A DNA stretch of 64,000 nucleotides, from assembly GCA_963675665.1 (NCBI GenBank), contig OY776510.1, forward strand, positions 3,488,001-3,552,000, in the 5' to 3' direction. The notes under the pieces were generated by a model. The model had not been told where the DNA came from and did not search any database. It was given only the letters and a program-made list of their open reading frames with translations. The stretch is from Spirochaetia bacterium (GTDB lineage Bacteria; Spirochaetota; Spirochaetia; UBA9216). The position numbers and the translations under genes were made by a program. Positions 24,689-41,949 of the stretch are shown here, one piece after another (position 1 is the first letter of the stretch; each line of letters opens with the position of its first letter).

Positions 24689-24786
24689 GCCTAACAAGCG
24701 AATATGAGGCTACGGTGACAAGCACCTTCGCCCAAATAAACCTCCCATTCGGTCGGTTTACTTCTCATATTCGCAGGACGTTAGAT
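24689..24786 (+). repeat. attC-like site 1 (98 bp)
   Basis: GCCTAAC-aa-GCGAATATGAG ... CTCATATTCGC-aggac-GTTAGAT. Confidence 0.88.
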
Positions 24787-24856
24787 TGCAATTTCTGTCC
24801 TGGTTGGGATTATTTAAGGAAGAGCCCGCCTTCCGTGGCGGGCATGGAGATAAGAA

Positions 24857-25921
24857 ATGAATAATAAAGTATTATATTATCCAAGTATAGAATTTTATGA
24901 TGTTAGTTGGGTTAAAGCATCTCTATGTATTTGGGACAAAGTTTATAGAATTGTGCCTTCAACTTATATTCCCAATGATTGTTTAGAAATAGAAACATTT
25001 ATTAATCATGGACTAGTTGATAATATTAGTATTGAACAAAATGATTTATCAGAAACAGCTGATAATTTTATCGATTTTATTGAAAAAATACCAGGATTAC
25101 CTGCTGGCATTGAAGGATATGAAAAGATCAATTTGCACAAAGAAAAAGTAGATGATCGTATTCTGCCCATATTAGAAGCGATATCAGACAAATTTGAATT
25201 AGAATCATGGATACCTCTATCAAGACCGATAGTAAACGCTTACATGCTTTTTTTTGCAGAAACTATTTCAAGAAGAAGAAAAATGCCAAAGATTACTGAT
25301 AATGTCGACATGTATACAATAATGCATTATTTTATGGCAGATGGTAATATTGATGAATCAATAGGTTCACATGAACATAAAGAATATAGCATTAATCTTG
25401 TATTAGAAAATATTATACCAGCAGATATTAATACCGTATCACCTGAGATTATACTTAATTTCAGAGAAGCAACAGAAGATATTAGAGACACTTTTAGAAA
25501 CTATGTATATAATTTGATTGATGAAATAAAGTCTATTGAAAGTGAATCTTATGCAAAAGAAATAATAACTGATAGTATTTCTGATATTTCTAAAAATAAT
25601 TCATCGCAAAAAAGAGTTATTAAAGAATTAGGTATGAATTTCACTACATCATTTCTTTCAATAGGTATACCTACTACAATTTCGGCAATTGCACTTTTTT
25701 CAAATACAAATAATATATTTTCCATAAACGAAATAATGGGTTCAGTTTTCATTGGAGCAGTTGCGTCTATTGCAGATACAGTCCGCTCAAGAAGAAAAGA
25801 TTGGAGTTCAGAGGAATCACTTTTTATGCATGAATTAGATAGAAGATTTGATACTTATAGGAATTTCAGGCCAACAACTAATCGACATTTTAATATTTTA
25901 GAAGAATATATTAATGATTAA
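24857..25921 (+). CDS. Cassette 2, gene 1: DUF6236-like protein with hydrophobic C-terminal segments
   Basis: N-terminal VLYYPSIEF...W.K...WDKVYRIVP pattern recalled from DUF6236; family not verified. Confidence 0.6.
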   Translation: MNNKVLYYPSIEFYDVSWVKASLCIWDKVYRIVPSTYIPNDCLEIETFINHGLVDNISIEQNDLSETADNFIDFIEKIPGLPAGIEGYEKINLHKEKVDDRILPILEAISDKFELESWIPLSRPIVNAYMLFFAETISRRRKMPKITDNVDMYTIMHYFMADGNIDESIGSHEHKEYSINLVLENIIPADINTVSPEIILNFREATEDIRDTFRNYVYNLIDEIKSIESESYAKEIITDSISDISKNNSSQKRVIKELGMNFTTSFLSIGIPTTISAIALFSNTNNIFSINEIMGSVFIGAVASIADTVRSRRKDWSSEESLFMHELDRRFDTYRNFRPTTNRHFNILEEYIND

Positions 25922-25952
25922 TAAAGTAAATAAAACTTAAAAGGAGCATAGC

Positions 25953-27515
25953 ATGTCAGAAAAACTAATTCTAGATGCATTAATTACAAGAGAAGATTTT
26001 GAAATCTCTGACGAATTAGATATACCCACAACAGATATGAAAGATACTTTGTCAATTCAAGATTTAGAATATAATTCTTTTTTCTATCGTGCATTAAGAA
26101 AGCCTGATTTTCAAAGAGAGACTAGTGATTGGACTATTGAAAAAACATTTCAATTTATTGAAAGTTTTATTAATGGAGATTTAATACCTGCAGTTATTTT
26201 GTGGAAAAATAGTTCAGGTTTAATATTTGTAATAGATGGTTCTCATCGAATCAGCGCTTTATCTTCATGGATAAATAACGACTATGGGGATGGTCGTTAT
26301 TCAATAGAATTTTATAATAATCAAATTTCAAACCAACAGAAAAAACAAGCCCAAACAGCAAGAACAATAATTGATGCTACAATAGGTTCATATGATTCAT
26401 ATAAAAATATTGATACAAATCTAAAAGAAGAAAATTTAACGAAATATAAAAAGGCGATGCAGTTAGGTTCTACAGCTATTCAAATTCAATGGGTAAAAGG
26501 TGATTCTAAAAAAGCAGAGGAGTCATTTTTTAAGATAAATGAAAAAGCTTCTCCAATTGATAATACTGAAAAGAAGATTATTAAAAATAGAAACAAACCA
26601 ATTGGGATAGCTGCAAGAGCAATCATGAGAAGTGGTAGTGGATATAGATATTGGTCCAAATTTGATAATAAAAGAAAAAATGAAGTTGAGCAGCTTGCAA
26701 AAGACATAAATGATATGCTTTTCTTACCAGAATATACAACCCCTATTAAAAGTTTAGATTTACCGATTGGCGGAAAGATCTTATCGAATAAAGGTTTAGC
26801 ACTAGTTCATGATACAATAATGATATGTAATAATTTAAATGAAAAAGAATTAGAGAGAATAGTGGATGACAATGATGGGATAAATACTGTTAAATACTTA
26901 AAACGAACAAAAAGACTTTTATTGAGGATTAATAGTCAACATCCAGGCTCTTTAGGATTACATCCAGTTATATATTTTTATTCAATACGTGGTGTTCATA
27001 AAGTAGCCTCATATTATGGAATACTTGATTTTATTAATTATATAGAAGAAACGAATAGGTACAACGATTTTATAGAAATACGCGAGAAGTTTGAAAGAAT
27101 CTTATTAGATTATGAATTCCTGATACAACAAATAGTACGTCATGATAGGCAATCTATAAATGGATATAAAAATATTAAGGAATATTATTCTTTAATTATG
27201 GACTATTTATTACAAGGTAAAGAGATTGAGGAAGTAATTAAAATGATTCTTGATACTAAGAAGTTTTCATATCTTTCTATTGCAATTACTAAAATGGAAG
27301 AAACTAAAGCTAAAAAATTCTCAAGAGATAAAAAATCGATAATTTTTATCAAGGAAGGTTTAAAAACAATTCCTAAATGTGGTATTTGTGGCGGGGCGTT
27401 ACATTCAAAATCGATATCAATTGATCATATAGAAAGAAAACAGGATGGTGGAATTTCAATGATAGATAATGGCCAATTATCACATCCATATTGTAATACA
27501 ACATATAAAAATTGA
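25953..27515 (+). CDS. Cassette 2, gene 2: DUF262 (ParB-like) plus HNH nuclease, GmrSD-like
   Basis: KPDFQRE..W, VIDGSHRISAL, FFKIN; C-terminal CGICGG..SIDHI..NGQLSHPYCN. Confidence 0.85.
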   Translation: MSEKLILDALITREDFEISDELDIPTTDMKDTLSIQDLEYNSFFYRALRKPDFQRETSDWTIEKTFQFIESFINGDLIPAVILWKNSSGLIFVIDGSHRISALSSWINNDYGDGRYSIEFYNNQISNQQKKQAQTARTIIDATIGSYDSYKNIDTNLKEENLTKYKKAMQLGSTAIQIQWVKGDSKKAEESFFKINEKASPIDNTEKKIIKNRNKPIGIAARAIMRSGSGYRYWSKFDNKRKNEVEQLAKDINDMLFLPEYTTPIKSLDLPIGGKILSNKGLALVHDTIMICNNLNEKELERIVDDNDGINTVKYLKRTKRLLLRINSQHPGSLGLHPVIYFYSIRGVHKVASYYGILDFINYIEETNRYNDFIEIREKFERILLDYEFLIQQIVRHDRQSINGYKNIKEYYSLIMDYLLQGKEIEEVIKMILDTKKFSYLSIAITKMEETKAKKFSRDKKSIIFIKEGLKTIPKCGICGGALHSKSISIDHIERKQDGGISMIDNGQLSHPYCNTTYKN

Positions 27516-27658
27516 TAATTAATAAAAAATGTATTGGAATCATGAATTATCTACATGATTAATTTGAAAAGGAGTTAAGCATATAGAAAATGATTATAGG
27601 GTCAAATACATCCATGTATTTGACAATTAAGTATTAAAGCAACCATGAAAGAAACGGC

Positions 27659-27806
27659 ATCTAACAAGCAAATATGTAGCTCCGGCCATTCGGCCTGCGC
27701 CCAAATTGAAGCTAACGGAGAAGCGGAGCAGGACAGTCGGGTTTGCTCATTGACAAAACACTCCTTTGGCGGCGCTTCAACTTTACATATTCGCGGAACG
27801 TTATGT
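27659..27806 (+). repeat. attC-like site 2 (148 bp)
   Basis: ATCTAAC-aa-GCAAATATGTA ... TACATATTCGC-ggaac-GTTATGT. Confidence 0.85.
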
Positions 27807-27955
27807 GCAATTACCCCGCCCCTTTTTTGGGAGAAGAGATTGTATATAGGCAAACTGGCATCCGTGCCAGTTTGGAAATGTATAAACACACATCGCATCG
27901 CATAAAAAGGTGAGATTATAGAATTAAAATTTATTAGTATGCATAACAAGGAAGC

Positions 27956-28837
27956 ATGATAATGGAATGGTCTGAAAGAATGAATATGGCAATCGATTAT
28001 ATTGAAGATAATATTAAAAATGAGATACTGATTTCAGAAGTAGCAAATATAGCCAATTGTTCATCATTTCATTTTCAGCGAATGTTTTATGCAATCATTG
28101 GGATTACGCCTGCTGAATATATCAGACGACGAAGATTGACTTTAGCAGCCTCTGATCTCGCTGCTGGGAATGAAAAAGTCATTGATATTGCTCTGAAATA
28201 TGGTTATGAATCACCAAATGCGTTTACTAGAGCATTCCGGAATATGCATGGTATTAATCCACGAGAAGTGCGCAGCTCAGAGGTTAAATTATCGGCATAT
28301 AATCGTGTTTCTTTTCATATCGAAATCAAAGGAGGAAATGATATGGATTATAAAATAGTCGAAAAACCGTCTTTTGAATTGGTAGGGAAGAGTAAAAACT
28401 TTACACATGAAAACTTTTTTAAAGAAGGCCCTAAATTCTGGAAAGAATACGTATGTACAGATGAATACCAAGAGCTTTGGAATTTGACAAATGGTAGATG
28501 GGGAGAGGTGACTGATTCCCCTCTGATGTCTGTCTATTTGCCTAGTGAAAAAAATGATGAATCATTTATTGATATTCTTGGTGTTGAAAAGTCAGATAGT
28601 TTTAATAATCATAAATTTGAACTATTTCAGATACCAGCTGCTACCTATGCAGAATTTAATTGTACTTATCAGACTTCTGCAAAAATGAATAAATTTATTT
28701 ACGGTGAATGGCTTCCTTCAACCGGTTATGAAAGGGATACTCAAAAAGCTGATATTGCAGCTTATTTCCCAGTAGCTTTTATGTCAACAAAAGGGATGGG
28801 GGTACGATGGTGGATACCAGTGGTTAAGAGAAAGTGA
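27956..28837 (+). CDS. Cassette 3: AraC-family regulator with GyrI-like effector domain
   Basis: MEWSERMN.AIDYIE, SSFHFQRMF, EYIRRRRLTLAA, KYGYESPNAFTRAF. Confidence 0.92.
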   Translation: MIMEWSERMNMAIDYIEDNIKNEILISEVANIANCSSFHFQRMFYAIIGITPAEYIRRRRLTLAASDLAAGNEKVIDIALKYGYESPNAFTRAFRNMHGINPREVRSSEVKLSAYNRVSFHIEIKGGNDMDYKIVEKPSFELVGKSKNFTHENFFKEGPKFWKEYVCTDEYQELWNLTNGRWGEVTDSPLMSVYLPSEKNDESFIDILGVEKSDSFNNHKFELFQIPAATYAEFNCTYQTSAKMNKFIYGEWLPSTGYERDTQKADIAAYFPVAFMSTKGMGVRWWIPVVKRK

Positions 28838-28909
28838 AAGAGATTTCAAGCAAAACATCGTGTTTTGCTTGAAGAATTCTCTTAAGAAAGACCGGGGCGG
28901 GGAAACTGC

Positions 28910-29001
28910 ATCTAACAAGGGTTACACGCTCCGGCCATTCGGCCTGCGGGCTGCGCCACATTCGGCTGCGCCGAACGTCGTGTAACCCTGGAACGTTATA
29001 C
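28910..29001 (+). repeat. attC-like site 3 (92 bp)
   Basis: ATCTAAC-a-AGGGTTACACG ... CGTGTAACCCT-ggaac-GTTATAC; nearly identical to site 4. Confidence 0.9.
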
Positions 29002-29079
29002 AAAATGTTCCCGCTAAGAGGAAGACGCCCGGACCTCCGGCCGACGGGCTAAAAGAGAGTTTAAGATTAAGGAATCAAG

Positions 29080-29859
29080 ATGGAAAAAGAGTTTACCGGA
29101 AATGAAATTGGATTAAATGGAGAAGCTCAAATAAAGATAGCTATCAAAACTATCTCTGATCTTGGTGGGAAAGCAGAAATGAAGGATTTATATTCTGCTT
29201 TAGAGAATGAAATGCGAGGAAAGAAACTCTCCAATCAAGGAAAGGCAAGTTTCAGATTTTTTGTGAATAAGGTCGCTGTAAAAGCAGGATTGATTTATCC
29301 GTATGACAAAAATAATCCGGGGTGGATGTTGACTCCGGCTGGTAAAGAATATCTGAAGAATGAAGAGATTAATGAAATAACAGTAAATACGGATACAAAT
29401 GAAGAAGAGGTAACTTTATCTAATTCGGCAAGAGGTTTAGCTTTTGAATTATACGCTCATGATTTTCTAAAGACATTATATCCAAGTTTTGTGTGGCATC
29501 ATCAGGGGCTTTATAAAACAACTGAAAGAGGTTTGGATTTTATAGGAGATAAACTTGGGGATCAAAATTCAGATGTTCGAACCATTGGTGTTCAGGTTAA
29601 GTTTCATAAAGAGAAAAATTCGCCAACTCAGATTGAATGGTTAAAATTTCTATCTGGTTGTTTTGCGCGCAGAGTAGATTTAGCAATATTTATCACAACA
29701 GGTAGATTGTCGAGTGCTCAATATCGAGAGGCGAGGGAATCAAATGTTATAGTTATTCAAGGAAAGGATGAGATAACAAGGATTGCAAAACAGAATAATT
29801 TAAAGAAGTTTGATTTATTTGGAAGTGAAGAGGAAGGAGAGGCTTCAGAAGAAGGATGA
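29080..29859 (+). CDS. Cassette 4: Mrr-like restriction endonuclease
   Basis: N-terminal winged helix (GWMLTPAGKEYL), then FE, GLD, GVQVK, IFITTG..S Mrr_cat motifs. Confidence 0.82.
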   Translation: MEKEFTGNEIGLNGEAQIKIAIKTISDLGGKAEMKDLYSALENEMRGKKLSNQGKASFRFFVNKVAVKAGLIYPYDKNNPGWMLTPAGKEYLKNEEINEITVNTDTNEEEVTLSNSARGLAFELYAHDFLKTLYPSFVWHHQGLYKTTERGLDFIGDKLGDQNSDVRTIGVQVKFHKEKNSPTQIEWLKFLSGCFARRVDLAIFITTGRLSSAQYREARESNVIVIQGKDEITRIAKQNNLKKFDLFGSEEEGEASEEG

Positions 29860-29921
29860 AGAGTTAAGATGTTCAAGCCTTGACTCCGCCGTGCGGCTTG
29901 AACGAAGAGCGGGAACACTTC

Positions 29922-30013
29922 GTATAACAAGGGTTACACGCTCCGGCAATTCGGCCTGCGGGCTGCGCCACATTCGGTTGCGCCGAACGTCGTGTAACCC
30001 TGGAACGTTAGCT
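29922..30013 (+). repeat. attC-like site 4 (92 bp)
   Basis: GTATAAC ... GTTAGCT; body differs from site 3 at two positions. Confidence 0.9.
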
Positions 30014-30105
30014 GAAATGCCCCGCTAAGAGGAGAACGCCCGGACCTCCGGCCGACGGGCTAAACTGAATAGGAAATTAATAATAAATTAAAATATGGAG
30101 TTAGT

Positions 30106-30954
30106 ATGAAGAAGTTATCACTAGTATTTGTATTTCTAATAGCTGTGAGTAGTTTATATGCAGAGGATATAGCTTTAATTGAAGATAATGTGCTTGATTT
30201 ATTTAATAGTTACAATCCTCAATATAAAACAATTGGTCCAAAAATCTTGAATATCCCTGAAGGGCAAATTGATTTTTACAAAATGAAAATAGATACTGAT
30301 GAAAGTGATCTAAAATTCTTAGTAATTAAAGATAAGTACATTATAGGGGTCTTGCAAAATGTTAATGGTGAAGATCAACTTTTAATTGATGCAAATGGTG
30401 ATAATTTATTAGATTATTATTCTCAAGAATTAACAATACCTTATTGGGTTGTAGCATCAGAGTGTAATAATCACAGTAATAATGAATATAATTTGGATAT
30501 TTATTTTGATGAAGCTATTGAGATTTTTAATGGAGAGGTGAACCCATATTCATCCGGTTTGCATTATCAGTTTACGCAAAAATTATTAGTTTCAGTTTCA
30601 GCACCGGAAACTCCTAATCGAGATATAATTTACGCTTTATATGATTATTACAATCATGGCGACCAATATCCATGGGTTGCTTTACAAATAATTAATTATA
30701 TAAGCAAGACTACTTACGATAGATATAAAAAGGATAATCTATTATTTTACTTACATACTATGGAATCCTTAATTAATTTTGGATATTCAGATAGAGCGAT
30801 ACCATTGATGGAAGAGTTAGTAAAGAAATACCCAGAATTTATTCCAGGGTTAGTGTATAGATGGCAATTAGAAAATGATGCTTCGAAAAAGGAGAAATAT
30901 TATAAAGATCTAAAAACCAATTATCCAAATCATTGGATAGTGAAATTAATTTAA
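30106..30954 (+). CDS. Cassette 5: exported hypothetical protein with TPR-like C-terminus
   Basis: Signal peptide MKKLSLVFVFLIAVSSLYA; GGAG RBS; helical repeats ..KYP.. / ..NYPNHW. Confidence 0.75.
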   Translation: MKKLSLVFVFLIAVSSLYAEDIALIEDNVLDLFNSYNPQYKTIGPKILNIPEGQIDFYKMKIDTDESDLKFLVIKDKYIIGVLQNVNGEDQLLIDANGDNLLDYYSQELTIPYWVVASECNNHSNNEYNLDIYFDEAIEIFNGEVNPYSSGLHYQFTQKLLVSVSAPETPNRDIIYALYDYYNHGDQYPWVALQIINYISKTTYDRYKKDNLLFYLHTMESLINFGYSDRAIPLMEELVKKYPEFIPGLVYRWQLENDASKKEKYYKDLKTNYPNHWIVKLI

Positions 30955-31034
30955 TGAAATATTATAGATTTGAAAACTTTGGTAGCCAGTCCTTGACTCC
31001 GTCGCACGGACTGGTTTAAGAGCGGGGACACTTC

Positions 31035-31342
31035 AGCTAACAAGGGAATATAAGCAGCGCCCATTCGGGCTTGGCCTTCGGCACATTTTTATTTTTCTGA
31101 ACATAGGCTTTATCATCGGCATTTAACACATGAAATGCAGTAGTCAACACCTTTGACACGGTTCTGGCGGAGACATTCGCTGATCGCTCATTCCAGAACC
31201 GCGCCAACCCTCGAAGACTCGGGACGGTTTCGCTACTGATTTCGTCGTTAAATGCACGGGATTTTTCAGTTTCGGGAAAATGATGGGTGTGATAGAATCA
31301 ATGAGAAAAATAAAAACGTCTTATATTCCCGGGGCGTTATGC
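31035..31342 (+). repeat. attC-like site 5, giant (308 bp), with nested inner site at 31121-31253
   Basis: AGCTAAC-aa-GGGAATATAAG ... CTTATATTCCC-ggggc-GTTATGC; TTTTTATTTTTCT/AGAAAAATAAAAA arm; inner ATTTAAC...GTTAAAT. Confidence 0.8.
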
Positions 31343-31576
31343 GACATTCTTGGAGGAAGAAGATAGAAACATTGTTTGGGATGATTTTGATAGTTTTTAG
31401 CATTTTACTCATTAAAAATTATTTTATTTCATATGGAAGGGCTATAAATAAATTCCGTGATATAATGTTATTTACAGTTTTAAATGCTGTAATTGAATTC
31501 TCAAGCAAGATCAACCAACTTGTTTTTAGGAACTTTACGCAGAAATTTAAGATTGAATTAAAAATAAAGGACGAAC

Positions 31577-32212
31577 ATGAATTCTACAGGCCAATATTAC
31601 TACAATGCCAGATGGTATGACCTAAATCTGGGTAGGTTTACCACAGAAGACCCGATAAGCGACGGCCTAAACTGGTACGCTTACGCTAATAATAATCCGC
31701 TGAGGTTTGTTGATCCGACCGGGTTAATAGATGTTGAATCTGATATAGTTGAAACGGAAACATACGTCGATGTTGATACTGATTCTCTCATGACTGGTGA
31801 TCCTATGGATATCTTTGATGATCCAGAAGTTGCAAAAGCTGATACTTTAGCTCAATTAGAAGATGTAGTAGATGAAACTGTAGAAATGATTTCCTTTACT
31901 ACCACTTTGGGTGGACTTTTGCCAGATGAAGAAGTTTCAACCACATTATTTTTTATTGGTGTAGGGACCGACCTTTATTCTACCCTTGTCTCTGAGGATA
32001 TGTCAGGGCTTGAATTAGGGATAAAGATAGGACTTGGTGTTGTTGGACTTATTTCAAGTCCTGCTGTTGCAGTGCCCTGTGTTTTAGCTACGATGTATGT
32101 AGGCTCGGCTTTTGATCATTTAGATGATGGACCTATTACAACAACTGATAATATGTCTGATTTATCTGATTTTCTTGGTGGTACTATAGATTGGGCAATG
32201 GATAATCAATAA
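31577..32212 (+). CDS. Cassette 6: Rhs-associated core plus C-terminal toxin-like domain
   Basis: TGQYYYNARWYD..LGRFTTEDP...NWYAYANNNPLRFVDPTGL. Confidence 0.88.
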   Translation: MNSTGQYYYNARWYDLNLGRFTTEDPISDGLNWYAYANNNPLRFVDPTGLIDVESDIVETETYVDVDTDSLMTGDPMDIFDDPEVAKADTLAQLEDVVDETVEMISFTTTLGGLLPDEEVSTTLFFIGVGTDLYSTLVSEDMSGLELGIKIGLGVVGLISSPAVAVPCVLATMYVGSAFDHLDDGPITTTDNMSDLSDFLGGTIDWAMDNQ

Positions 32213-32760: not shown

Positions 32761-32901
32761 GCATAACAACGGTTAAGCGGCTCCGGCCAGTCGGCCTGCG
32801 CCCAAATTGCCAGGAAGGGATTAGATAAACTTGAGGCAGTTAATAAGTAAGAGTTTATGTTCAGCTTTCCTGTCAACTTCGCTTAACCCGGAACGTTATC
32901 T
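32761..32901 (+). repeat. attC-like site 6 (141 bp)
   Basis: GCATAAC-aac-GGTTAAGCG ... CGCTTAACC-cggaac-GTTATCT. Confidence 0.85.
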
Positions 32902-33684: not shown

Positions 33685-33779
33685 AGATAACAGGGGCTAT
33701 GTGCTTCGTCGCTATACGCTCCTCGGGCTACGCCACATACGGCTATCGCCGTACGTCACATAACCCCGGGACGTTAGAT
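33685..33779 (+). repeat. attC-like site 7 (95 bp)
   Basis: AGATAAC-a-GGGGCTATGTG ... CACATAACCCC-gggac-GTTAGAT. Confidence 0.9.
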
Positions 33780-33912
33780 GCAATGAGCCCGACAAGAGGA
33801 AGACGCCCGGACCTCCGGCCGACGGGCTAAGAGGTAAATATATGGAATATGAAAAATTATTTTTTGATAAATTAAGTCAAAGCTACAATAATTCTTCCTA
33901 TTAGGAGAGCGA

Positions 33913-34632
33913 ATGTGGTATGAGAAGACCTATATAAATGGTTCTATGAAGTGGATTAAAATATTTAATGATGAAAATCAAGGACTCAAAGTTGAGGATT
34001 GGGAATTAGATCGCGCCTGGGAGGCTGTAATAAAAGAAGATCCTGATTATATAACAATTGAATTGATGTATGATCAAGAATTTGCTTTCAGTTCTGCATT
34101 TTTCTTTCGTGCAAATATAAAGAATCCAAAACTTCAAACATTTTTTTGTCCAAAGTGTTTTAAATATTTAGATACTCATGAAGAAATGTTTTTTTTCAAT
34201 AATCCAATATTAAGGACAAATAAAATAATAAAATCAAAATTTGAAAATGTTAATTTTAAAAATAAGGCATCTGCCGAAATTCAAGCTTATATACTCAATG
34301 AAAATACTTTTAAAAATTGTGGATTATGGGGTATGCACGGTTGTACTTTGTTGTCTTATTTTATTGAAGAAGAGCATTATGATGTGATTTTTCAAAGTAA
34401 TAATGAAGGATTTGTATATCTATGGAAATATAAAGGAATTCCACAAAGATTTAAATTAGAATTAAATGAAAAGGAAAGCAGATTTGATGTAATAGATAAA
34501 AATGAGATTGTTTACTCTGAAAGCCTTGAACGTTTTTTCACAGCTAAAGGGTTTTATAATAGATATTATGAGATAGTAAGCTATTTAAATAATTTTAAAA
34601 AATTAAATTTAGAGGATAAGAACGATATATAA
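33913..34632 (+). CDS. Cassette 8: hypothetical protein (true start may be 33842, frameshifted)
   Basis: 239-aa ORF between two sites; an out-of-frame ATG with GAGGT RBS lies at 33842. Confidence 0.65.
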   Translation: MWYEKTYINGSMKWIKIFNDENQGLKVEDWELDRAWEAVIKEDPDYITIELMYDQEFAFSSAFFFRANIKNPKLQTFFCPKCFKYLDTHEEMFFFNNPILRTNKIIKSKFENVNFKNKASAEIQAYILNENTFKNCGLWGMHGCTLLSYFIEEEHYDVIFQSNNEGFVYLWKYKGIPQRFKLELNEKESRFDVIDKNEIVYSESLERFFTAKGFYNRYYEIVSYLNNFKKLNLEDKNDI

Positions 34633-34715
34633 GAACCGAAGTTTTGGTATTTTTTAAGATCAATGAAGAATCCAGACCTAACTCCGTTGAACGGTCTGGA
34701 TGTTGGGCTCAAAGC

Positions 34716-35016
34716 ACATAACAAGGGAATATAAGCAGCGCCCGTACGGGCTTGGCCTTCGGCACATTTTTATTTTTCTGAAGTGAGTGAAGATTATCGG
34801 AATTTAACAAGTCAAATGCAGTTGTCGCCGTCTATTGTCACGGTTTTAGCAGAGACGTTTCGCGCTGATCGCGCTACACTCTAAAACCGCGCCAATTCCT
34901 TTCGCTTCGCTCCAGGATCGAGGGCGCAACTGATTTAGTCGTTAAATGCACGGGATTTTTCAGTTTCGGGAAAATGATGGGTGTGATAGAATCAATGAGA
35001 AAAATAAAAACGTCTT
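34716..35016 (+). repeat. attC-like site 8 (giant type), truncated by IS3
   Basis: Homologous to 31035-31342; ends at AAAAACGTCTT where the IS begins; inner site at 34802-34947. Confidence 0.82.
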
Positions 35017-35046
35017 TGAACCGCCCCGGGAATCCCGGAGACTGTT

Positions 35047-35955
35047 TTAGTTGAGTCCGACAACTCTGGCCGAATCTCTAACACTTTCATAATACATCAT
35101 CTCAAACTCTTTTGGGGGAATATTTCCAATCGGTTCAAGAATTCTTCGGTTGTTAAACCAGTCCACCCATTTCAGAGTTTCATATTCTACTTCATCTATA
35201 GATTTCCAGGGACCTTTTCTCCAGATCACCTCCGCTTTATATAAACCGTTTATTGTTTCCGCCATTGCATTATCATATGAATCTCCAACACTTCCGACAG
35301 AAGGTTCAATGCCTTCTTCAGCCAATCTCTCAGAATATTTGATAGACAGGTACTGGCTGCCGCGGTCGCTGTGATGAATCAATTTATCTTCCGGCGCTCG
35401 AGCAAAGATTGCCTGCTCCAAAGCATCCAGAGTTAGTTCGGCACTCATTGATCGCGATACGCGCCAACCGACGATCATCCGTGAAAACACATCTGTTACA
35501 AAGGCTACATATACAAATCCTCGCCAGGTTGCCACGTAGGTGAAATCTGCAATCCATAACTCGTTCGGCCGGGTAGATTTGAATTCCCGATTTACTAAAT
35601 CCAACGGCCTGTCTGTTTTCTTATCAGGAATCGTCGTTTTAATACCCTTGCCGCGAATAACTCCTCTAAGACCAAGATCCTTCATGAGTCGAGCTACAGT
35701 GCATCTTGCGACATTAAAACCCTCACGCTTCAGTTGTCTCCAGACTTTTCGGACTCCGTAAACTTTGTAGTTATCATCCCAGACACGCTTAACTTCCGAC
35801 TTCAATTTTTTATCAGAGTGATAGCGTGCAGGAGCCTTACTTGGATCTTTTTCTCTGGATTTCATTTCGTAATAAAAAGACGGAGCAATCGGTATTACTT
35901 TACAGATTGACTCGACTCCATAATCTTCTCTATTTTTATCAATGAAATTAATCAT
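35047..35955 (-). CDS. IS3 OrfB transposase (DDE)
   Basis: [37 protein letters not shown]. Confidence 0.95.
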
Positions 35956-36275
35956 TTCCTCTGTGGGCGGTCGAGCTCCGCCTGTGCGAAATATGCTGAA
36001 GCCTTTCTGAGTATCTCGTTAGCTTTTCTTAATTCCCTGACTTCTCGCTCCAGTTCTTTAATTCTGGTTTTCTCATCAATAGTCAGACCTTCTCGCTTTT
36101 CTGAATCCATTTCCGCTTGACGAACCCATCGGCGCAATGTTTCCGGGGTGCAGCCAATCTTGTTTGCTATTGATTCTATGGCTCCCCATTGGGAGCCGTG
36201 CTATTCAGTAGTCTCAAATACCAACCGTACTGAACGTTCTTTTACTTCTTTTGAATACCGGGTTCTTTTGTCCAT
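35952..36275 (-). pseudogene. IS3 OrfA with premature TAG
   Basis: [48 protein letters not shown]; stop at 36201-36203. Confidence 0.85.
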
Positions 36276-36325
36276 AACATAATCCTCTCATATAATTATG
36301 TCTCTGGTAAACCCGGGGCGGTTCA

Positions 36326-36654
36326 ACCATCAGAACAGGAATATGATGGAGATTTTGTAGAGTTTGCGTATCCGATAAATTACAGGAAGCGGTTCGTAAA
36401 TAATCGAGGCTTTATCAGTTTTAATGGAACACGCTATTTTGTCGGGAATCCATTTGGAGGATACAATATAGGAGTTCAGCAGAATGAAGAAGGGCAACTA
36501 AATGTCTGGTTTGGAGACTCTCTTCTTGGATATTTTAACCAGGAAAGTTTGTTGCTGGTGCCTGAAAAGCAGTATACACTAATGAAAAGAAAAAGGAGAA
36601 AAGTGTTACCGATGTCGTGACACAAATCCGTTACCTATGTCGTGAAACCGGACC
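36326..36654 (+). mobile_element. IS481-family remnant (3' end of transposase and right end)
   Basis: Frame ending ..NVWFG...RKVLPMS* followed by tandem GTTACC.ATGTCGTGA repeats typical of IS481 ends. Confidence 0.7.
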
Positions 36655-36693
36655 CCGCTGTCGCCTTCCATGGCTCATTAGAAAGAATTAAGA

Positions 36694-36722
36694 TTGATAA
36701 AACTTAAAAGGTGTTGTACAAT
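36694..36722 (+). promoter_or_regulatory. TA promoter
   Basis: TTGATA-17bp-TACAAT overlapping TGTACA/TGTACG motifs; ATG 7 nt downstream. Confidence 0.6.
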
Positions 36723-36728
36723 GTACGT

Positions 36729-37121
36729 ATGAGTATATTGGTAGATGCAAACATATATTTAGCAGTAATTCTCGATGAGCCGGAAAAAAGCAAAATAATA
36801 GAATTAACTCAGGAAGATGATCTGATATCACCGGTTGTTTTACCTTTCGAAGTGGGAAACGCACTATCTGCAATGTATAAAAGAAATAGGTTAGATAAAA
36901 GTCAAATAATTGATTGTTATTCAATATTTCAGAAAATACCAGTGCGTTTGATTGATGTTAATATTCAAAACTCATTAGTAATAGCAGCAGATTATGGAAT
37001 ATATGCTTACGATGCATATTATTTGGAGATAGCAAAACGATACAAATGCAGTTTGTTGAGTTTGGATAATAGAATGAAAGAAGTGGCTAAAGATTTAGGA
37101 GTCCACTTATTGGAGGTCTGA
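36729..37121 (+). CDS. Cassette 9: VapC PIN-domain toxin
   Basis: ILVDANI, FEVGNAL, YAYDAYYL, LLSLD. Confidence 0.92.
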   Translation: MSILVDANIYLAVILDEPEKSKIIELTQEDDLISPVVLPFEVGNALSAMYKRNRLDKSQIIDCYSIFQKIPVRLIDVNIQNSLVIAADYGIYAYDAYYLEIAKRYKCSLLSLDNRMKEVAKDLGVHLLEV

Positions 37122-37346
37122 ATGAGAGTTTTTAATTATTCAGAAGCTAGGCAGAATTTTGCTTCAATATTGAATATGGCAGCAGAAGAAGATGTCATAA
37201 TAGCAAAGAAAGATGGAAGCAGATTTAAGATTGTACCGCTTACTAAAAATGAAAGTAAATCCCCATTTGACGTTCCAGGAATTAAAAGTAAAGTTACAAC
37301 CAAAGAAATCCTTGATGTTATTAGAGAAACTCGAGAGTTATCGTAG
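37122..37346 (+). CDS. Cassette 9: Phd/YefM-like antitoxin
   Basis: YSEARQNFASIL...VII.KKDG. Confidence 0.88.
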   Translation: MRVFNYSEARQNFASILNMAAEEDVIIAKKDGSRFKIVPLTKNESKSPFDVPGIKSKVTTKEILDVIRETRELS

Positions 37347-37367
37347 AGAAGAAAGCCGTAATACTTC

Positions 37368-37462
37368 AGATAACAGGGGCTATGTGCTTCGTCGCTATGC
37401 GCTCCTCGGGCTGCGCCACATACGGCATTCGCCGTACGTCGTATATCCGCGGAACGTTAGAC
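37368..37462 (+). repeat. attC-like site 9 (95 bp, arms mismatched)
   Basis: AGATAAC-a-GGGGCTATGTG ... CGTATATCCGC-ggaac-GTTAGAC; body like site 7. Confidence 0.82.
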
Positions 37463-37496
37463 GAAAGATATAAAGGTCGACGGGCTTGAATGAGAT

Positions 37497-38306
37497 ATGA
37501 ATATTGAAAAGGTTTTAAGGAATTATATAAAAATAGAGAATAGAGTTATCCATTCGGGTGAACAGTTTGTTATAATTACATTATGTTTAATACTGGTATT
37601 TTCATGTAACAAAAAGATAGAAAGCAGAAATAATGAATTATTAAAAGTATTGTTTATAGGAAATAGCTACACATTCAATAATAACCTTCCCGATCAAGTT
37701 AAAAAAAATATTTACTGATCAAAACAAGGCTATTTCTATTGAGATAAAATCATTTACTCCCGGTGGAGCAAGACTCCAAGATCATCTAAATTCTATTTTC
37801 ACTTTGGATACAATAAGAAATGGAAATTGGGATATAATAATTATACAAGGGCATAGCTTGGGCCTCTAAATAATCCTATTGGTTTTAAGGATGCTGCTTT
37901 AACTCTCATAAAAATCGCTAAAGATAGTGGTGCTGAAGTCTATTTATTTGAAACATGGTCTCGTGCTTTGGGTGAACCAGAGTACAGTGAAGAATGGTCA
38001 GGGCGAAATCATGCTGCAATGCAGAAACTCATCAGCAAAAAATATACTGATATTGCAATAGTCACTGATGCAATAGTTATTCCGATAGGGAGAATATGGC
38101 AAAGACTAAGGATAGAGATCCCAAAAATTGAATTATATTCAACAGACGGTTCTCATCCTACACCCTGTGGAAGTTATTTGGCGGCTTGTGTTATTTATAA
38201 ATATCTGTTCGATGAAGATCCTACTGACATTAAATACTATCCAAATGGAATAAAGAAATCTGATGCTAAGAAATTACGGGCTGCTGCTGAAAATATTATT
38301 CTTTAA
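37497..38306 (+). pseudogene. Cassette 10: SGNH-hydrolase-like protein, frameshifted
   Basis: VLFIGNSYT, WDIIIIQ, LFETWSR and DGSHPT..GSYLAA spread over different frames. Confidence 0.8.
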
Positions 38307-38559
38307 CGAAAAAGAAATAAGTTTGGAGAATATTATGACCGAGATACTATATACGATTAATATTTAATTTCCTTAGAGATGGAAAAAACTTATTGTCCAG
38401 GCATGTGAAAAAAATATGAAGATGAAAATGATTCATTGTAGCTGGTTGAAGAGTGATGGTTTTAAGCAGATAGTCAGTTATAAAAAGGGGTGCTATAATA
38501 ATCAAAGAAACCAGACCTTGACATCGCCGTGCGGTCTGTTTGAAGAGCCAAAACTCTTG

Positions 38560-38636
38560 CTATAACAGGGGCTATGTGCTCAGCCCATTCGGCCTTCGGG
38601 CTGCGCCGAACGTCGTGTAACCCTGGAACGATAGGA
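38560..38636 (+). repeat. attC-like site 10 (chimeric; right core has lost TT)
   Basis: Left arm of site-7 type, right arm of site-3 type; ends GGAACG-ATAGGAA instead of GTTATAGGAA. Confidence 0.78.
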
Positions 38637-38660
38637 ACTAGTTTTTAAGAGATTATTACG

Positions 38661-39155
38661 ATGAAAGAGAAGTACCAAATCCAAATAGCCGATAAGAATG
38701 ACCAAGAATTTCTTTATGAGATGCTTTACCAATCAATTTATGTAGAGCCAGATTCACCGAAACCTGATAGACAAATAATTGATATTCCAGAAATATCAAA
38801 ATATGTCGCAAACTGGGGAAAGCAAGGAGATTACGCTTTAATTGCTTTAGATGAAAATGGAACTAAAATAGGTGCAGTTTGGCTCCGATACTTTGATGTA
38901 AATAACAAGGGATATGGATTCATTAACGATCAGATACCTGAGATAGGTATCGCTGTAGAAGAAAAGAGCCGTGGGAATGGTATTGGGTCATTCTTATTAA
39001 ATGAAATATTGAAAAGAACGAAAAATGAAATAGAATCAATTTCATTAAGTGTTCAACCGAATAATCCAGCAATGGATTTATATTCTCGATTCGGTTTCTA
39101 TGAATGTGGAAAAGAAGGGGACTCTGTAATAATGAGATATGATAACGAGGCATGA
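38661..39155 (+). CDS. Cassette 11: GNAT acetyltransferase
   Basis: GAVWLR, GYGF..PEIGIAV, RGNGIG, SLSVQPNNPAMDLY.RFGF. Confidence 0.92.
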   Translation: MKEKYQIQIADKNDQEFLYEMLYQSIYVEPDSPKPDRQIIDIPEISKYVANWGKQGDYALIALDENGTKIGAVWLRYFDVNNKGYGFINDQIPEIGIAVEEKSRGNGIGSFLLNEILKRTKNEIESISLSVQPNNPAMDLYSRFGFYECGKEGDSVIMRYDNEA

Positions 39156-39165
39156 AAACTACTTC

Positions 39166-39281
39166 CTATAACAGTGAGTATATGCTACGTTCGGCTATCG
39201 CGCCTCACTTGGGCTGCGCCACATTTTTTCTTTTTCCTGCTCCGCTTCGCCCGCTTATCGGGAAAAGAAAAAACGTTATAT
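39166..39281 (+). repeat. attC-like site 11 (right inner arm deleted)
   Basis: CTATAAC ... GGGCTGCGCCACA TTTTTTCTTTT/AAAAGAAAAAA c GTTATAT; no partner for the left arm. Confidence 0.72.
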
Positions 39282-39302
39282 GCAATGCATAACGAGAAAG
39301 AA

Positions 39303-39800
39303 ATGATTGTATTAGAAAAATTTGAAAAAGATAACATTCCCCAATTACTATCTTGGCTTGAAGACACGGATGCAAAATTCCTTTTACAGTTTGCTGGACC
39401 CATATATTTATTCCCATTGAATGAAAAACAACTCATGGAAACTTTGGATTCAAAAGATTATTTATTGCTTCGGGCAATCGATACCAAAGCCGGGAATATA
39501 ATCGGTCATTGCCAATTTATGAGAGTTGATAAAAATAAACAACAAGCATCCATTGGTAGAATCCTTATTAATCCTAATTTCAGAGGGAAAGGATTTGGAG
39601 TACAACTCATAAATGAAATGAAAATCTTTGCCAAAGATAAATTAAATCTATTGAAGATTGATTTACGTGTTTTTGATTTCAACACTGCAGCTTTACATTG
39701 TTATTCTAAAGCTGGGTTTGTTAAAACCTCTGTACATGAAAACCATATTCCTGAGTTCAATGAAACTTGGAAAATTATTACAATGGAATGTTCTCTCTGA
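39303..39800 (+). CDS. Cassette 12: GNAT (RimJ-like) acetyltransferase
   Basis: RILINPNFRGKGFG, LRVFDFNTAALHCY.KAGF; real start MIVLEKF. Confidence 0.9.
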   Translation: MIVLEKFEKDNIPQLLSWLEDTDAKFLLQFAGPIYLFPLNEKQLMETLDSKDYLLLRAIDTKAGNIIGHCQFMRVDKNKQQASIGRILINPNFRGKGFGVQLINEMKIFAKDKLNLLKIDLRVFDFNTAALHCYSKAGFVKTSVHENHIPEFNETWKIITMECSL

Positions 39801-39824
39801 CCCTCTATTCTCGTTGGTCAATGA

Positions 39825-39971
39825 ATCTAACAAGCGAATATGCGGTTCCGATTCGCTCCACTCAAATTGCTTCTTTGATAATCTCTGATAAAAGTATGCT
39901 ATACTTTTCCCAGATATTATTAAGCTCTCAAGTGGCCGAAGCACCTTCGCATATTCCGCAGAACGTTATAT
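39825..39971 (+). repeat. attC-like site 12 (147 bp)
   Basis: ATCTAAC-aa-GCGAATATGCG ... CGCATATTCCGC-agaac-GTTATAT. Confidence 0.85.
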
Positions 39972-40080
39972 GACATATTCTTGAGATGGATATAATATAC
40001 AGAAAATAAAAGAGGAGTACTTAATGTCTACAATATTATTTGATTTCTTTAGATAAACATAAAAATATAAGGAGTCAATA

Positions 40081-40827
40081 TTGTCGTATTTTAATTTTCA
40101 AGGAAAGAAAATATTTTATTCAGTTAAAGGAGAAGGTCCTCTTCTGATAGTTTTACCAGGTAACACAGCTACATCTGCTGCACATGAGCATGAGTTAAAT
40201 TATTTTTCAGATAAGTATTGCACTGTTTCCCTAGATTTTCTGGGAACTGGAAAATCAGACAGAATGAAGCAATGGGATAGCGGTTGGTGGGAAGCCTGTA
40301 GTAACCAAGTTAAAGCATTAGTTGAGCATCTTAATTATAAAGAGGCGATTCTTCTTGGCATAAGTGGCGGTGCTATTATAGCAATTTCTGCCGCTATAAA
40401 TCATTCTGAATATGTTAAAGCAGTTGTTGCAGATAGCTTTTCATTGCATTTTACGGAAGAAATGTATAAAAACAATGTCTTAAATGAAAGATCTAATTTA
40501 TCTGAAGAACAACAAATGTTCTGGTCATCAATGCATGGTTCAGATTGGAAAGATGTTATAACTGCTGATACAGAAATGATTGGAATGGTTGTTAAGGAAG
40601 GAGGATCTTGTATCAAGAGCCAACCAGAAAAGATAAAATGTCCTGTTTTGCTGACATATTCAGAAGAAGATAGTTTTCTTCCAAATGTAAAAGAAATTGC
40701 TGCAGATTTAGAAAAGAAGATTAGCAATTGTGAGATTAAAATATTTTCAAATGGAGATCATCCTCTAATTTGGACAAATCCTACGGATTTTTTTCAATCC
40801 GTTGATAGATTTCTATTAAAAATATAA
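40081..40827 (+). CDS. Cassette 13: alpha/beta hydrolase
   Basis: LDFLGTGKS, GISGG nucleophile elbow, ED, GDH. Confidence 0.9.
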   Translation: MSYFNFQGKKIFYSVKGEGPLLIVLPGNTATSAAHEHELNYFSDKYCTVSLDFLGTGKSDRMKQWDSGWWEACSNQVKALVEHLNYKEAILLGISGGAIIAISAAINHSEYVKAVVADSFSLHFTEEMYKNNVLNERSNLSEEQQMFWSSMHGSDWKDVITADTEMIGMVVKEGGSCIKSQPEKIKCPVLLTYSEEDSFLPNVKEIAADLEKKISNCEIKIFSNGDHPLIWTNPTDFFQSVDRFLLKI

Positions 40828-40879
40828 AGAAAATTTGTGGGCTATTTCGATGGCCCGCATTCAATAACAAGAATAAGTC

Positions 40880-41051
40880 ACATAACAGCGTGGATCAAGG
40901 GCCTTGCCGTCCCTGGCAAGGATAAAGAAAAGTCGACAAAACGCACACATTGTAATAATTTACTATTATGAAGCTTTTTGATTGGGATGAAAAGAAGAAT
41001 TCAGAATTAAGAAAAACGCGTGATATAAACGGAAGATTGGTTGAATCAAGC
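40880..41051 (+). pseudogene. Truncated site 13 fused to a remnant BrnT-like toxin cassette
   Basis: ACATAAC at 40880 without right half; ATG 40968 gives MKLFDWDEKKNSELRKTRDI, then deleted. Confidence 0.62.
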
Positions 41052-41145
41052 AGATAACAGGGGCTATTTGCATCGTCGCTATGCGCTCCTCGGGCTGTGC
41101 CACATACGGTTGCGCCGTACGTCACATAACCTCGGAACGTTATGC
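41052..41145 (+). repeat. attC-like site 14 (94 bp)
   Basis: AGATAAC-a-GGGGCTATTTG ... CACATAACCTC-ggaac-GTTATGC; site-7 family. Confidence 0.87.
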
Positions 41146-41197
41146 GAAATCTCGAACCTAAAAAAAGAAGATGCTTGCCATCCTTTGCAAGCAAAGA

Positions 41198-41230
41198 TTG
41201 ACGGAGTGTAGTAATTACTATATAATTACT
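41198..41230 (+). promoter_or_regulatory. mazEF promoter/operator
   Basis: TTGACG-17bp-TATAAT with AGTAATTA...TAATTACT palindrome. Confidence 0.8.
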
Positions 41231-41246
41231 TTAGTTGAGGTATAAT

Positions 41247-41495
41247 ATGTTAATTTCAGTGGTTCCTATAGGCAATTCAAAAGGAATTCGGATTCCTAAG
41301 AGCATTTTGCAGCAATTAAATATTGAAGAAAAAGTCGAATTGGAAGTTCATAATACAGAAATATTGATACGGCCAATTAAGAAAAAGCCGAGAGAAGGAT
41401 GGTCCGAAGAGTTTATGAAAATGCATCAAAATGGTGATGATTCTTCACTTGTGGACAATTTAACAGGTCAGGATGATTTTGAATGGGAATGGTAA
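41247..41495 (+). CDS. mazE: Cassette 15: AbrB/MazE antitoxin
   Basis: IGNSKGIRIPK, PREGW, FEWEW. Confidence 0.9.
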   Translation: MLISVVPIGNSKGIRIPKSILQQLNIEEKVELEVHNTEILIRPIKKKPREGWSEEFMKMHQNGDDSSLVDNLTGQDDFEWEW

Positions 41496-41812
41496 TCCAT
41501 CAATACGAAGTGTATTTGATAAACTTGGATCCGACTGTTGGTCATGAAATAAAAAAGACAAGACCTTGTTTAGTTATTTCACCAAACGAGATGAATGAAT
41601 CGATCCAGACTATTATAATCGCTCCAATGACAACGAAATCACATCCATATCCAACTCGAGTACCAATTAAATTTGAAAAGAAAGATGGATGGATTGTTTT
41701 AGATCAATTAAGAACAATTGATAGAAAGAGATTAATTAAAAAAATTGGAAAGATAAATAAAAAAGAAGTTGAACTCGTCAAGAATGTACTCCAGGAAATG
41801 TTAATAGATTAA
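41483..41812 (+). CDS. mazF: Cassette 15: PemK/MazF toxin
   Basis: LDPTVGHEIKKTRPCLVISP, APMTT, LDQLRTIDRKRL. Confidence 0.94.
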   Translation: MGMVIHQYEVYLINLDPTVGHEIKKTRPCLVISPNEMNESIQTIIIAPMTTKSHPYPTRVPIKFEKKDGWIVLDQLRTIDRKRLIKKIGKINKKEVELVKNVLQEMLID

Positions 41813-41861
41813 AGCCAATCAACATCCTTGTTGCTTGGCTTTGAAGAAGGTTTGTGACTAC

Positions 41862-41949
41862 GCATAAAACAGCAGAATATGAGGCTCCAGCCATTCTGCT
41901 GTCGCCTAAATCGACTATGTCGACTTCGCATATTCGCGGAGTGTTATAT
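41862..41949 (+). repeat. attC-like site 15 (left core has AA insertion)
   Basis: GCATAAAAC-a-GCAGAATATGAG ... CGCATATTCGC-ggagt-GTTATAT. Confidence 0.75.

Follow-up and report, generated by a model that had tools for sequence, protein, structure and literature searches.

An array of bulge-free attC-like sites headed by a tyrosine recombinase without the IntI-specific insertion in a spirochaete genome

Classical integrons, represented by class 1 and by Vibrio cholerae with its VchIntIA-VCR complex (PDB 2A3V), are arrays of small, mostly promoterless genes set between palindromic attC sites of the form RYYYAAC...GTTRRRY. The R' core of one site is complementary to the R'' core of the next, the crossover falls at G|TT, the bottom strand folds better than the top, and the cassettes carry toxin-antitoxin, GNAT and Cass2 genes. 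In the portions of PMC5027507 (Nivina et al. 2016) drawn on here, extrahelical bases are described as setting strand and orientation in the classical system, and the spacers measure 5-6 nt on each arm. The part of PMC7790495 that concerns us attributes the move of integron integrases from double- to single-strand recombination to the acquisition of the I2 helix. Here we describe a stretch of 64,000 nucleotides (the window) of a Spirochaetia bacterium, positions 3,488,001 to 3,552,000 of contig OY776510.1 in assembly GCA_963675665.1. Within it a tyrosine recombinase gene heads a row of 13 attC-like sites, 12 of them complete, which lies downstream of the gene and in the same orientation, between 24689 and 41949 (start of the first site to end of the last). 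The array resembles classical integrons in its small genes and palindromic sites with these cores, in core complementarity, in the inferred crossover, in the better-folding strand and in gene content. It differs from them in an enzyme that lacks the IntI-specific insertion and carries an N-terminal module, in an integrase that is co-oriented with the cassettes and has a candidate attI behind its stop codon, and in sites without extrahelical bases, whose spacers measure 1-3 nt on one side and 5-6 nt on the other and whose surplus of unpaired bases is found, on the bottom strand, in the arm that bears AAC and not opposite to it. We conclude that the region is probably the cassette array of an integron-like system distinct from the classical integrons, with sites that would act as folded bottom strands.

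Several described systems come close to parts of this picture. The spirochaete integrons with an 'inverted integrase' (Treponema type; here genomes G284 and G317) belong to the same phylum and also have the integrase co-oriented with an array downstream of it, yet their enzymes pass the IntI model (400-508 bits) and their sites are equally spaced, with an extrahelical G and an extrahelical T 6 bp apart. In archaeal integrons, as far as the cited sections describe them (Ghaly et al. 2022, PMC9668308), attI lies directly downstream of intI as it may in the window, most arrays are called CALINs (clusters of attC sites lacking integron integrases) and the archaeal IntIs have the additional domain. 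Compared by eye, most of the nine tested archaeal attCs in data S9 of that paper show extra bases in the left arm beside a left spacer of ~5 nt, which is the classical build and differs from that of the window sites. Relatives of the window integrase do occur in archaeal metagenome-assembled genomes (MAGs). Under the IntegronFinder definition of IntI by its extra domain, as given in the part of Cury et al. 2016 (PMC4889954) used here, the window array would be labelled a CALIN if its sites were found, and the same part reports CALINs in Firmicutes but no complete integron there; unlike a CALIN, the window array is headed by a cognate-looking recombinase. Xer/dif systems (XerA, XerC/D) share the catalytic and core-binding domains, and the window integrase sits at the cut-off of the XerA family model NF040815. 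In place of one dif site, however, the window has 13 sites that bound cassettes and are structured and covarying, and its enzyme has the added N-terminal module. Our search of the open-access literature and bioRxiv found no description of arrays served by an integrase without I2 (I2-less); PMC8138268 calls the insertion 'not fully conserved' in its integron-like subgroup.

The integrase and the sites are as follows, in window coordinates. E values refer to R1, a covariance model built from 19 window-type bottom strands.

23201..24265, plus strand: integrase, a tyrosine recombinase of 354 aa (Pfam Phage_integrase 7.8e-42, SAM_4, HARP)
23201-23380, plus strand: N-terminal HARP-like module, integrase residues 1-60
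24266..24357, plus strand: candidate attI region, reaching from the end of the integrase gene to the first open reading frame (ORF) of the cassettes, from reading the sequence
24689..24786, plus strand: S1, GCCTAAC AA GCGAATATGAG ... CTCATATTCGC AGGAC GTTAGAT; E = 1.3e-8
27659..27806, plus strand: S2, ATCTAAC AA GCAAATATGTA ... TACATATTCGC GGAAC GTTATGT; missed by R1
28910..29001, plus strand: S3, ATCTAAC A AGGGTTACACG ... CGTGTAACCCT GGAAC GTTATAC; in the R1 training set
29922..30013, plus strand: S4, GTATAAC A AGGGTTACACG ... CGTGTAACCCT GGAAC GTTAGCT; E = 4.6e-12
31035..31342, plus strand: S5, composite site of 308 nt, AGCTAAC AA GGGAATATAAG ... CTTATATTCCC GGGGC GTTATGC
32761..32901, plus strand: S6, GCATAAC AAC GGTTAAGCG ... 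CGCTTAACC CGGAAC GTTATCT, stem of 9 bp; E = 6e-5
33685..33779, plus strand: S7, AGATAAC A GGGGCTATGTG ... CACATAACCCC GGGAC GTTAGAT; in the R1 training set
34716..35016, plus strand: S8, left part of an S5-like composite site (82% identical to S5 over 298 nt), its right arm removed by an IS3 element
37368..37462, plus strand: S9, decayed, 7/11 arm pairs; E = 4.8e-7, bottom-strand z = -0.6
38560..38636, plus strand: S10, decayed hybrid of an S7-type left arm and an S3-type right arm, R' GATAGGA; E = 0.18
39825..39971, plus strand: S11, ATCTAAC AA GCGAATATGCG ... CGCATATTC(C)GC AGAAC GTTATAT, one bulged base in the right arm; E = 0.0036
41052..41145, plus strand: S12, AGATAAC A GGGGCTATTTG ... 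CACATAACCTC GGAAC GTTATGC, decayed, 8/11 Watson-Crick pairs; E = 4.3e-9
41862..41949, plus strand: S13, the last site, decayed, with a degenerate R'' (GCATAAAAC); E = 4.3e-5

The well-kept sites share one build, namely RYYYAAC, a left spacer of 1-3 nt, a bulge-free stem of 9-11 bp, a terminal structure, the second stem arm, 5-6 purine-rich nt and GTTRRRY. Left and right spacers measure 2/5 nt in S1, S2 and S5, 1/5 nt in S3, S4 and S7 and 3/6 nt in S6, the right one reading AGGAC in S1, GGAAC in S2, S3 and S4, GGGGC in S5, CGGAAC in S6 and GGGAC in S7; the right arm is always 3-4 nt longer than the left. The stems of S1, S3, S4 and S5 consist of 11/11 Watson-Crick pairs with zero bulges, formed by GCGAATATGAG/CTCATATTCGC at 24698-24708/24764-24774 in S1, by AGGGTTACACG/CGTGTAACCCT at 28918-28928/28979-28989 in S3 and again at 29930-29940/29991-30001 in S4, and by GGGAATATAAG/CTTATATTCCC at 31044-31054/31320-31330 in S5. 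S2, whose terminal structure is long, and S7 each carry a single mismatch, A.C and C.A respectively on the top strand. Altogether the window holds four different perfect or near-perfect arm sequences, and the chance of an 11/11 stem is 4^-11 in one register, or ~2e-5 per site over the 81 registers tried. Set against the classical description of an attC, the window sites do have R'' (RYYYAAC) and R' (GTTRRRY) around an imperfect palindrome; S1-S7 lack extrahelical bases near L'' opposite the bottom-strand AAC arm, being bulge-free, and lack a central spacer of 5-6 nt on each arm. No shift of register yields classical extrahelical bases, because the right half is the longer one by 3-4 nt, that is, the difference runs in the opposite direction.

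A first-pass annotation of this DNA had described the inner arms of sites 1-7 as pairing without a bulged base, starting 1-3 nt after AAC and ending 5-6 nt before GTT. These descriptions hold, the arm pairs that it quoted all being present and perfectly complementary, and the length difference between the arms leaves no other register in which they would have the extrahelical base of ordinary attCs, an objection it had raised against itself. Its further statement that the arms vary in sequence yet keep pairing is borne out by the four arm sequences and by the pattern of compensatory changes. For this pattern we aligned 19 sites of 1/5 geometry from the window and 7 related loci, in register and with the structure specified by hand. 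Compensatory changes occur in 10/11 stem pairs, with 84 compensatory cells versus 27 in shuffles, and sliding the partner columns lowers pairing from 97% to 39-47%; pre-selection of the sites for at least 10/11 pairs builds in the pairing percentage, though not the diversity of pair types. With 8 window sites whose rows are out of register, RNAalifold returns only a 5-pair local helix. Across the family, geometry is conserved and sequence is not: among 78 sites the commonest geometries are 1/5 (n = 23) and 2/5 (n = 14), and the composition around the AAC/GTT anchors fits the consensus, the anchors themselves being required by the scanner.

A separate observation concerns the terminal structure. 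Many sites (S1, S2, S6, S11 and S13 in the window, and sites of loci L016, L024, L025, L038, L043 and L049) carry an unpaired CCCAAAT-like motif between two small hairpins of that structure, with ACTT immediately before the right arm. The strict motif CCAAAT is found in 13/78 sites, versus 1.4 expected from shuffles. The recurrence of the motif means that the 'variable' terminal structure is partly conserved across phyla.

Which strand folds was addressed by folding both. The DNA folding energy is lower for the bottom strand in 10 of 11 window sites, with one tie (S11), and the z-score against dinucleotide shuffles is more negative for the bottom strand in 9 of 10. Bottom-strand z-scores lie between -2.5 and -5.5 for S1, S3, S4, S6, S7, S11 and S13 (in S1, -5.5 versus -3.1 for the top strand) and are unremarkable for S2, S9 and S12. 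The top-strand mismatches of S2 and S7 become G.T wobbles on the bottom strand only, as the earlier annotation had noticed, and this bias extends to the family: in 136 distinct sites, stem mismatches are wobbles on the bottom strand alone in 59 cases, on the top strand alone in 21 and on neither in 81, and the more stable strand is the bottom one in 95 sites and the top one in 38, with 3 equal. The base after AAC is A in 106/136 sites and the base before GTT is C in 107/136, so that the two form a G.T pair on the bottom strand only; this junction pair is present in 17/19 aligned sites. The same feature is found in the genome's own classical sites, whose bottom strand folds better in 25/25 examined. 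Taken with the boundaries of duplicated cassettes described next, wobble bias and folding energies point to the bottom strand and to a crossover at G|TT, as judged from sequence.

At five window junctions (S1-S2, S3-S4, S4-S5, S6-S7 and S12-S13), R' of one site is complementary to R'' of the next, which reveals the cassette logic without telling which core is cut. The crossover is located by relatives of the locus. In L045, three copies of a ~325-nt cassette are identical from the upstream GTT to their own GTTAG, and the element upstream of them is either of two different sites or, once, the end of the integrase gene; the first cassette begins at a GTT ~40 nt past the stop codon of the I2-less integrase. 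Duplicated units in a second relative, L070, share these limits. From these copy boundaries it follows that a site travels with the gene upstream of it and that the crossover lies at G|TT, and those of L045 place attI ~40 nt behind the integrase stop codon. The cassette unit thus starts with the TT of the upstream R' and ends on the G of its own R', as observed in the relatives and inferred for the window. Self-BLAST of the window is ambiguous as to which gene a site travels with, because S3, S4 and S7 share a downstream element, and the ORFs upstream of S5 and S8, when compared, show no homology. Behind the window integrase, the candidate attI region contains GTTATAT at 24281, GTTATAC at 24292 and GTTGAGG at 24316; attI is placed there as a candidate, by analogy with L045.

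The association of this site type with this type of enzyme was examined across genomes. Scanning species-representative genomes with the window integrase gave 80 loci, mostly MAGs, from Spirochaetota, Bacillota, Bacteroidota, Ignavibacteriota, Nitrospirota, Atribacteria, Thermodesulfobacteria and several archaeal groups. A simple scanner finds 93 sites in the I2-less loci, versus 32 in reversed and 11 in shuffled sequence, and the right spacer exceeds the left by 3 or 4 nt in 60/93 of them versus 4/32 in the reversed control. For comparison we took 11 other genomes of the same phylum, with 20 stretches adjoining true IntIs, plus the classical array of the window's own genome (412 kb in all), and counted site classes with a gapped arm aligner and a reversed-sequence control. 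Beside the I2-less integrase (893 kb) there are 62 bulge-free sites with unequal spacers, 2 bulge-type sites with equal spacers and 21 others (reversed control 2/3/12); beside true IntIs the counts are 3 bulge-free unequal sites, 41 with equal spacers and one-arm bulges and 16 others (reversed control 9/0/9). Two or more window-type sites are present in 12 of 81 I2-less loci. The true-IntI arrays of G284 (L121) and G317 (L126) are co-oriented with their integrases and yet have classical sites, which means that orientation is not the cause of the window site type.

Two reciprocal covariance models lead to the same division. R1 finds 9 window sites with E<0.01, of which 7 were not in its training set, and gives S10 an E of 0.18; S2 and S5, which it missed, both have long terminal structures. 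In the 80 I2-less loci (873 kb) it gives 52 matches (17 trained), 52/52 of them on the strand opposite the integrase, and in the 412 kb beside true IntIs it gives 0 matches. R2, a home-made model from 21 classical sites beside true IntIs of other genomes of one phylum, finds ~90 sites beside true IntIs, including 12 untrained ones in the own-genome classical array (L009). In the window R2 detects nothing but the nested classical-type sites of S5 and S8, and no window-type site at E<=1, and it has 0 matches in the 80 I2-less loci. In the sequences compared, the two models thus separate the site classes cleanly. The first-pass annotation had further proposed that bottom-strand hairpins are the substrates and that they co-evolved with the I2-less enzyme. 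Energies, z-scores and the 59 versus 21 wobbles support the former computationally, and the latter gains support from the 62/2 versus 3/41 counts, from the reciprocal models and from the presence of both systems in one genome. In the same set of loci we noticed two sites, L016:17022-17101 of an Atribacteria MAG and L024:10793-10872 of an Altarchaeum MAG, that are identical at 74/80 positions, with 150-nt flanks ~59% identical; this suggests cassette pools shared across domains, or a binning error.

The enzyme itself stands apart from IntI in sequence. It scores 190.8 bits against the IntI model TIGR02249, below the cut-off of 265, in a match split into two stretches at model positions 169/235, and 220 bits against NF040815, equal to the cut-off of 220. 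In an alignment, the genome's true IntI has two insertions, of 31 aa and 10 aa, that neither the window integrase nor any of 9 relatives shares (these from Bacillota, Bacteroidota, Ignavibacteriota, Thermodesulfobacteriota, Spirochaetota and two archaeal groups); the IntI-specific additional domain, the I2 helix region, is lacking. The catalytic residues of tyrosine recombinases, R211, K236, H301, R304, H327 and Y336, are invariant in the alignment. An AlphaFold model (pLDDT 81.7) has VchIntIA as its closest solved structure (2a3v, Foldseek E = 3e-16), followed by XerA, and the catalytic and core-binding domains resemble XerA (PDB 4a8e, 6.8e-37; also 5hxy). In a quick tree with two Xer outgroups and XerA unsampled, 28 IntIs group together (support 100), a branch with SH-aLRT 85 has the 51 I2-less enzymes on one side and the IntIs on the other, and the genome's two Xer proteins are separated from both sets (support 99). 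The genome has a single I2-less integrase gene and two other Xer-like genes.

At the N-terminus the I2-less family has an additional module, ~60 residues long, whose elements follow one another as strand-strand-helix-strand-strand-helix and which contains two conserved tryptophans; some Bacteroidota relatives (L063, L076, L077 and L088) have it two or three times. The window integrase matches HARP (PF07443) with 27.5-27.8 bits versus a cut-off of 25; 6/20 family N-termini match this model. The top Foldseek match of the module is the HARP domain of SMARCAL1 (4o66), a weak one at E = 0.11, and VIA-align gives Z 6.5 for the N-terminus of T4 UvsW, Z 5.5 for the N-terminal domain of XPB and Z 4.1 for HARP. 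SMARCAL1 HARP, the T4 UvsW N-terminus and the XPB N-terminal domain bind branched DNA.

The window is not the only cassette-bearing region of this genome. On the single contig (5.15 Mb) of the assembly there is, in addition, the gene of a true IntI at 4525299-4526318 (392.3 bits versus the TIGR02249 cut-off of 265), ~1 Mb from the window array. Upstream of it and divergent lies a classical, sedentary array of ~105 kb (4418922-4523342) with at least 25 near-uniform attC sites of ~140 nt, whose bottom strands read YAAC GAC GATTTGAGTAG ... CTACT(C/G)CAAATC TCTT GTT. The spacers of these sites are nearly equal, and on the arm facing AAC both stem and spacer have one additional base, which agrees with the classical build. 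A second window-type cluster, at G000:C1:3906578-3924040 on the minus strand (L011), has 3 R1 matches, no integrase nearby and further copies of the element that follows S1.

The two kinds of site also meet within single elements. The terminal structure of S5 houses a complete classical-type attC at 31121-31253 (R2 match, minus strand, E = 5e-4), and S8 nests another at 34802-34947 (R2 E = 8e-6), both in the same orientation as their host sites. Conversely, at G000:C1:4440257-4440560 (minus strand) in the classical array, a classical site is followed 73 nt on by the right half of an S5-type site (TTTATATTCCC GCAAC GTTAGAC), and after this half-site comes a cassette start resembling that after S1. 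On comparison of these sequences, the composite sites and the hybrid junction look like traffic between the two integron systems by way of composite sites.

We propose the following mechanism. The site would act as a folded bottom strand that the enzyme grips by its stem and by its R helix. This short helix (TAAC/GTTA with an added G.T pair) and the bulge-free stem of 9-11 bp would be joined by 5-6 unpaired, pyrimidine-rich nt, with this loop on the arm carrying the AAC to be cleaved and 1-3 nt on the other. If the bottom strand is the substrate and the crossover lies at G|TT, then the unpaired loop would be on the arm that is cut, contrary to what holds for classical sites. The tyrosine would cut at AA^C, the loop lying directly 3' of this presumed cleavage point, and the loop would be the single-stranded segment that is exchanged. 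We infer that, with the second strand never being exchanged, a corresponding spacer on the other arm is not required. A one-sided loop might in this way serve as an asymmetric mark of strand and orientation, replacing the extrahelical bases, which in classical attC sites sit on the opposite arm and are read by the I2 helix, and the N-terminal module may, as a speculation, help to read the loop or the branched terminal structure.

A question remains, could a different substrate or a different enzyme account for these sites? They might be ordinary attCs of a CALIN that the true IntI, ~1 Mb away, serves in trans, the neighbouring Xer-like recombinase being unrelated to them. The genome does contain such an enzyme, well above its cut-off (392 bits vs 265), classical-type attCs are nested in S5 and S8, and the hybrid junction puts half a window-type site into the classical array; moreover, some classical attCs in the experiments of PMC5027507 considered here are barely affected in IntI1 bottom-strand recombination by deletion of their extrahelical bases. 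We nevertheless hold this explanation to be unlikely, given that the pairing of enzyme and array, with its orientation, recurs across phyla, including Bacillota and archaeal MAGs, with two or more window-type sites in 12/81 loci and all 52 R1 matches facing one way. R1 finds no window-type site in the 412 kb beside true IntIs, the classical model R2 misses all window-type sites, and L045 has its first cassette directly next to the gene of the I2-less integrase. It is less probable still that the top strand is the substrate, with cleavage in R''. The classical extrahelical-base rule and the switch of strand upon inversion of these bases, as reported in the cited portion of PMC5027507, would lead one to expect it, and 38/136 family sites fold better as top strand; in L045, however, the copies share their downstream site and differ upstream, the opposite of what a crossover in R'' predicts, and the biases in wobbles and folding energy speak for the bottom strand, which is likewise favoured in each of the 25 classical sites examined. 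Least probable in our view is a reaction between AAC/GTT cores in ordinary duplex form, like that of Xer at dif, with the hairpins serving for example in transcription termination. The integrase is at the cut-off of the XerA family model, and integron integrases keep an ancestral duplex activity according to the parts of PMC4792948 and PMC7790495 relied on here. A duplex site, though, has no reason to keep an arm-length difference of 3-4 nt, compensatory changes hold the stem in a fixed register beside the cores, the mismatches are biased to one strand, and it is geometry that is conserved and not sequence; the genome has, besides, two other Xer-like genes.

Several points weigh against a distinct integron-like system acting on folded bottom strands. 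The link between enzyme and sites is drawn, from sequence, through adjacency and co-occurrence, and the related genomes are not independent of one another. In the classical system, as the cited part of PMC5027507 has it, the recombined strand has its unpaired bases opposite the AAC arm, and inverting them shifts the strand; taken literally, this rule would choose the top strand here. A minority of the family sites, 38/136, do fold better as top strand, 21 mismatches are top-only wobbles, and within the window S10 and S12 also carry wobbles possible on the top strand only. The crossover is mapped in relatives and not in the window array. R2 being home-made and trained on one phylum, the attC model of IntegronFinder might still find window-type sites. 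The hybrid junction at G000:C1:4440257-4440560 indicates that DNA moved between the arrays, and the true IntI could act in trans. As for the N-terminal module, its structural matches are weak and below the level of a safe fold match, too weak for a claim of membership in these families.

The remainder of the locus fits an integron in its contents. Between the sites lie small genes that match, by Pfam, DUF3795, GmrSD/HNH, AraC-Cass2, an Mrr-like nuclease, HTH, PIN, two GNATs, a hydrolase and MazF, a gene content typical of integron cassettes. Two insertion sequences (IS) interrupt or close the array:

35017..36325, minus strand: IS3-family insertion sequence interrupting S8 (Pfam rve, HTH_21; terminal inverted repeats)
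42109-43662: IS66 element after S13, closing the array

The decayed sites are those distal to the IS3 element, beyond which the remainder of S8 is missing. The only Rfam match at gathering thresholds is the ALIL frameshift pseudoknot at 35881-35997, within the IS3 element; the sites and the element that follows some of them have no match. This conserved, structured element of ~50 nt (element D) follows R' of S3, S4 and S7, at 29005-29053, 30017-30064 and 33783-33830, and its 3' half recurs many times in the genome's classical array. A GC-rich hairpin (U) precedes R'' of S4, S5, S8 and S10, at 29866-29921, 30985-31034, 34672-34715 and 38513-38559. Searched in Rfam, neither element D nor hairpin U has a match. 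In contigs of the public runs X1-X4, breaks fall at sites, with sides of less than 50 nt at the joints; a recurrent joint, 31331 -> 24788, was considered as a rearrangement and ruled out, a second genomic copy being its source.

What the window adds to the described systems is the polarity of the asymmetry, the pair of reciprocal models and a genome with both systems. The logic is that of classical integrons (AAC/GTT cores, cassette units, bottom-strand bias) with the asymmetry on the other arm. We lean towards the view that this is a second ancient integron lineage, spread across Bacteria and Archaea and including Bacillota, whose integrase never had or has lost I2 and has an N-terminal module for recognition of branched DNA. 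Its sites would have no extrahelical bases, the unpaired exchange segment lying only on the cleaved arm, and composite sites would pass cassettes between it and the classical system, with which it coexists in this genome. Should the system prove functional, there are at least two solutions, of which I2 with extrahelical bases is one, and the possible sister relation of the two lineages opens the origin of integrons to direct tests. Many arrays now labelled integrase-less may then have an integrase after all, and, with both systems in one genome, this spirochaete offers a ready-made model for specificity and cross-talk.

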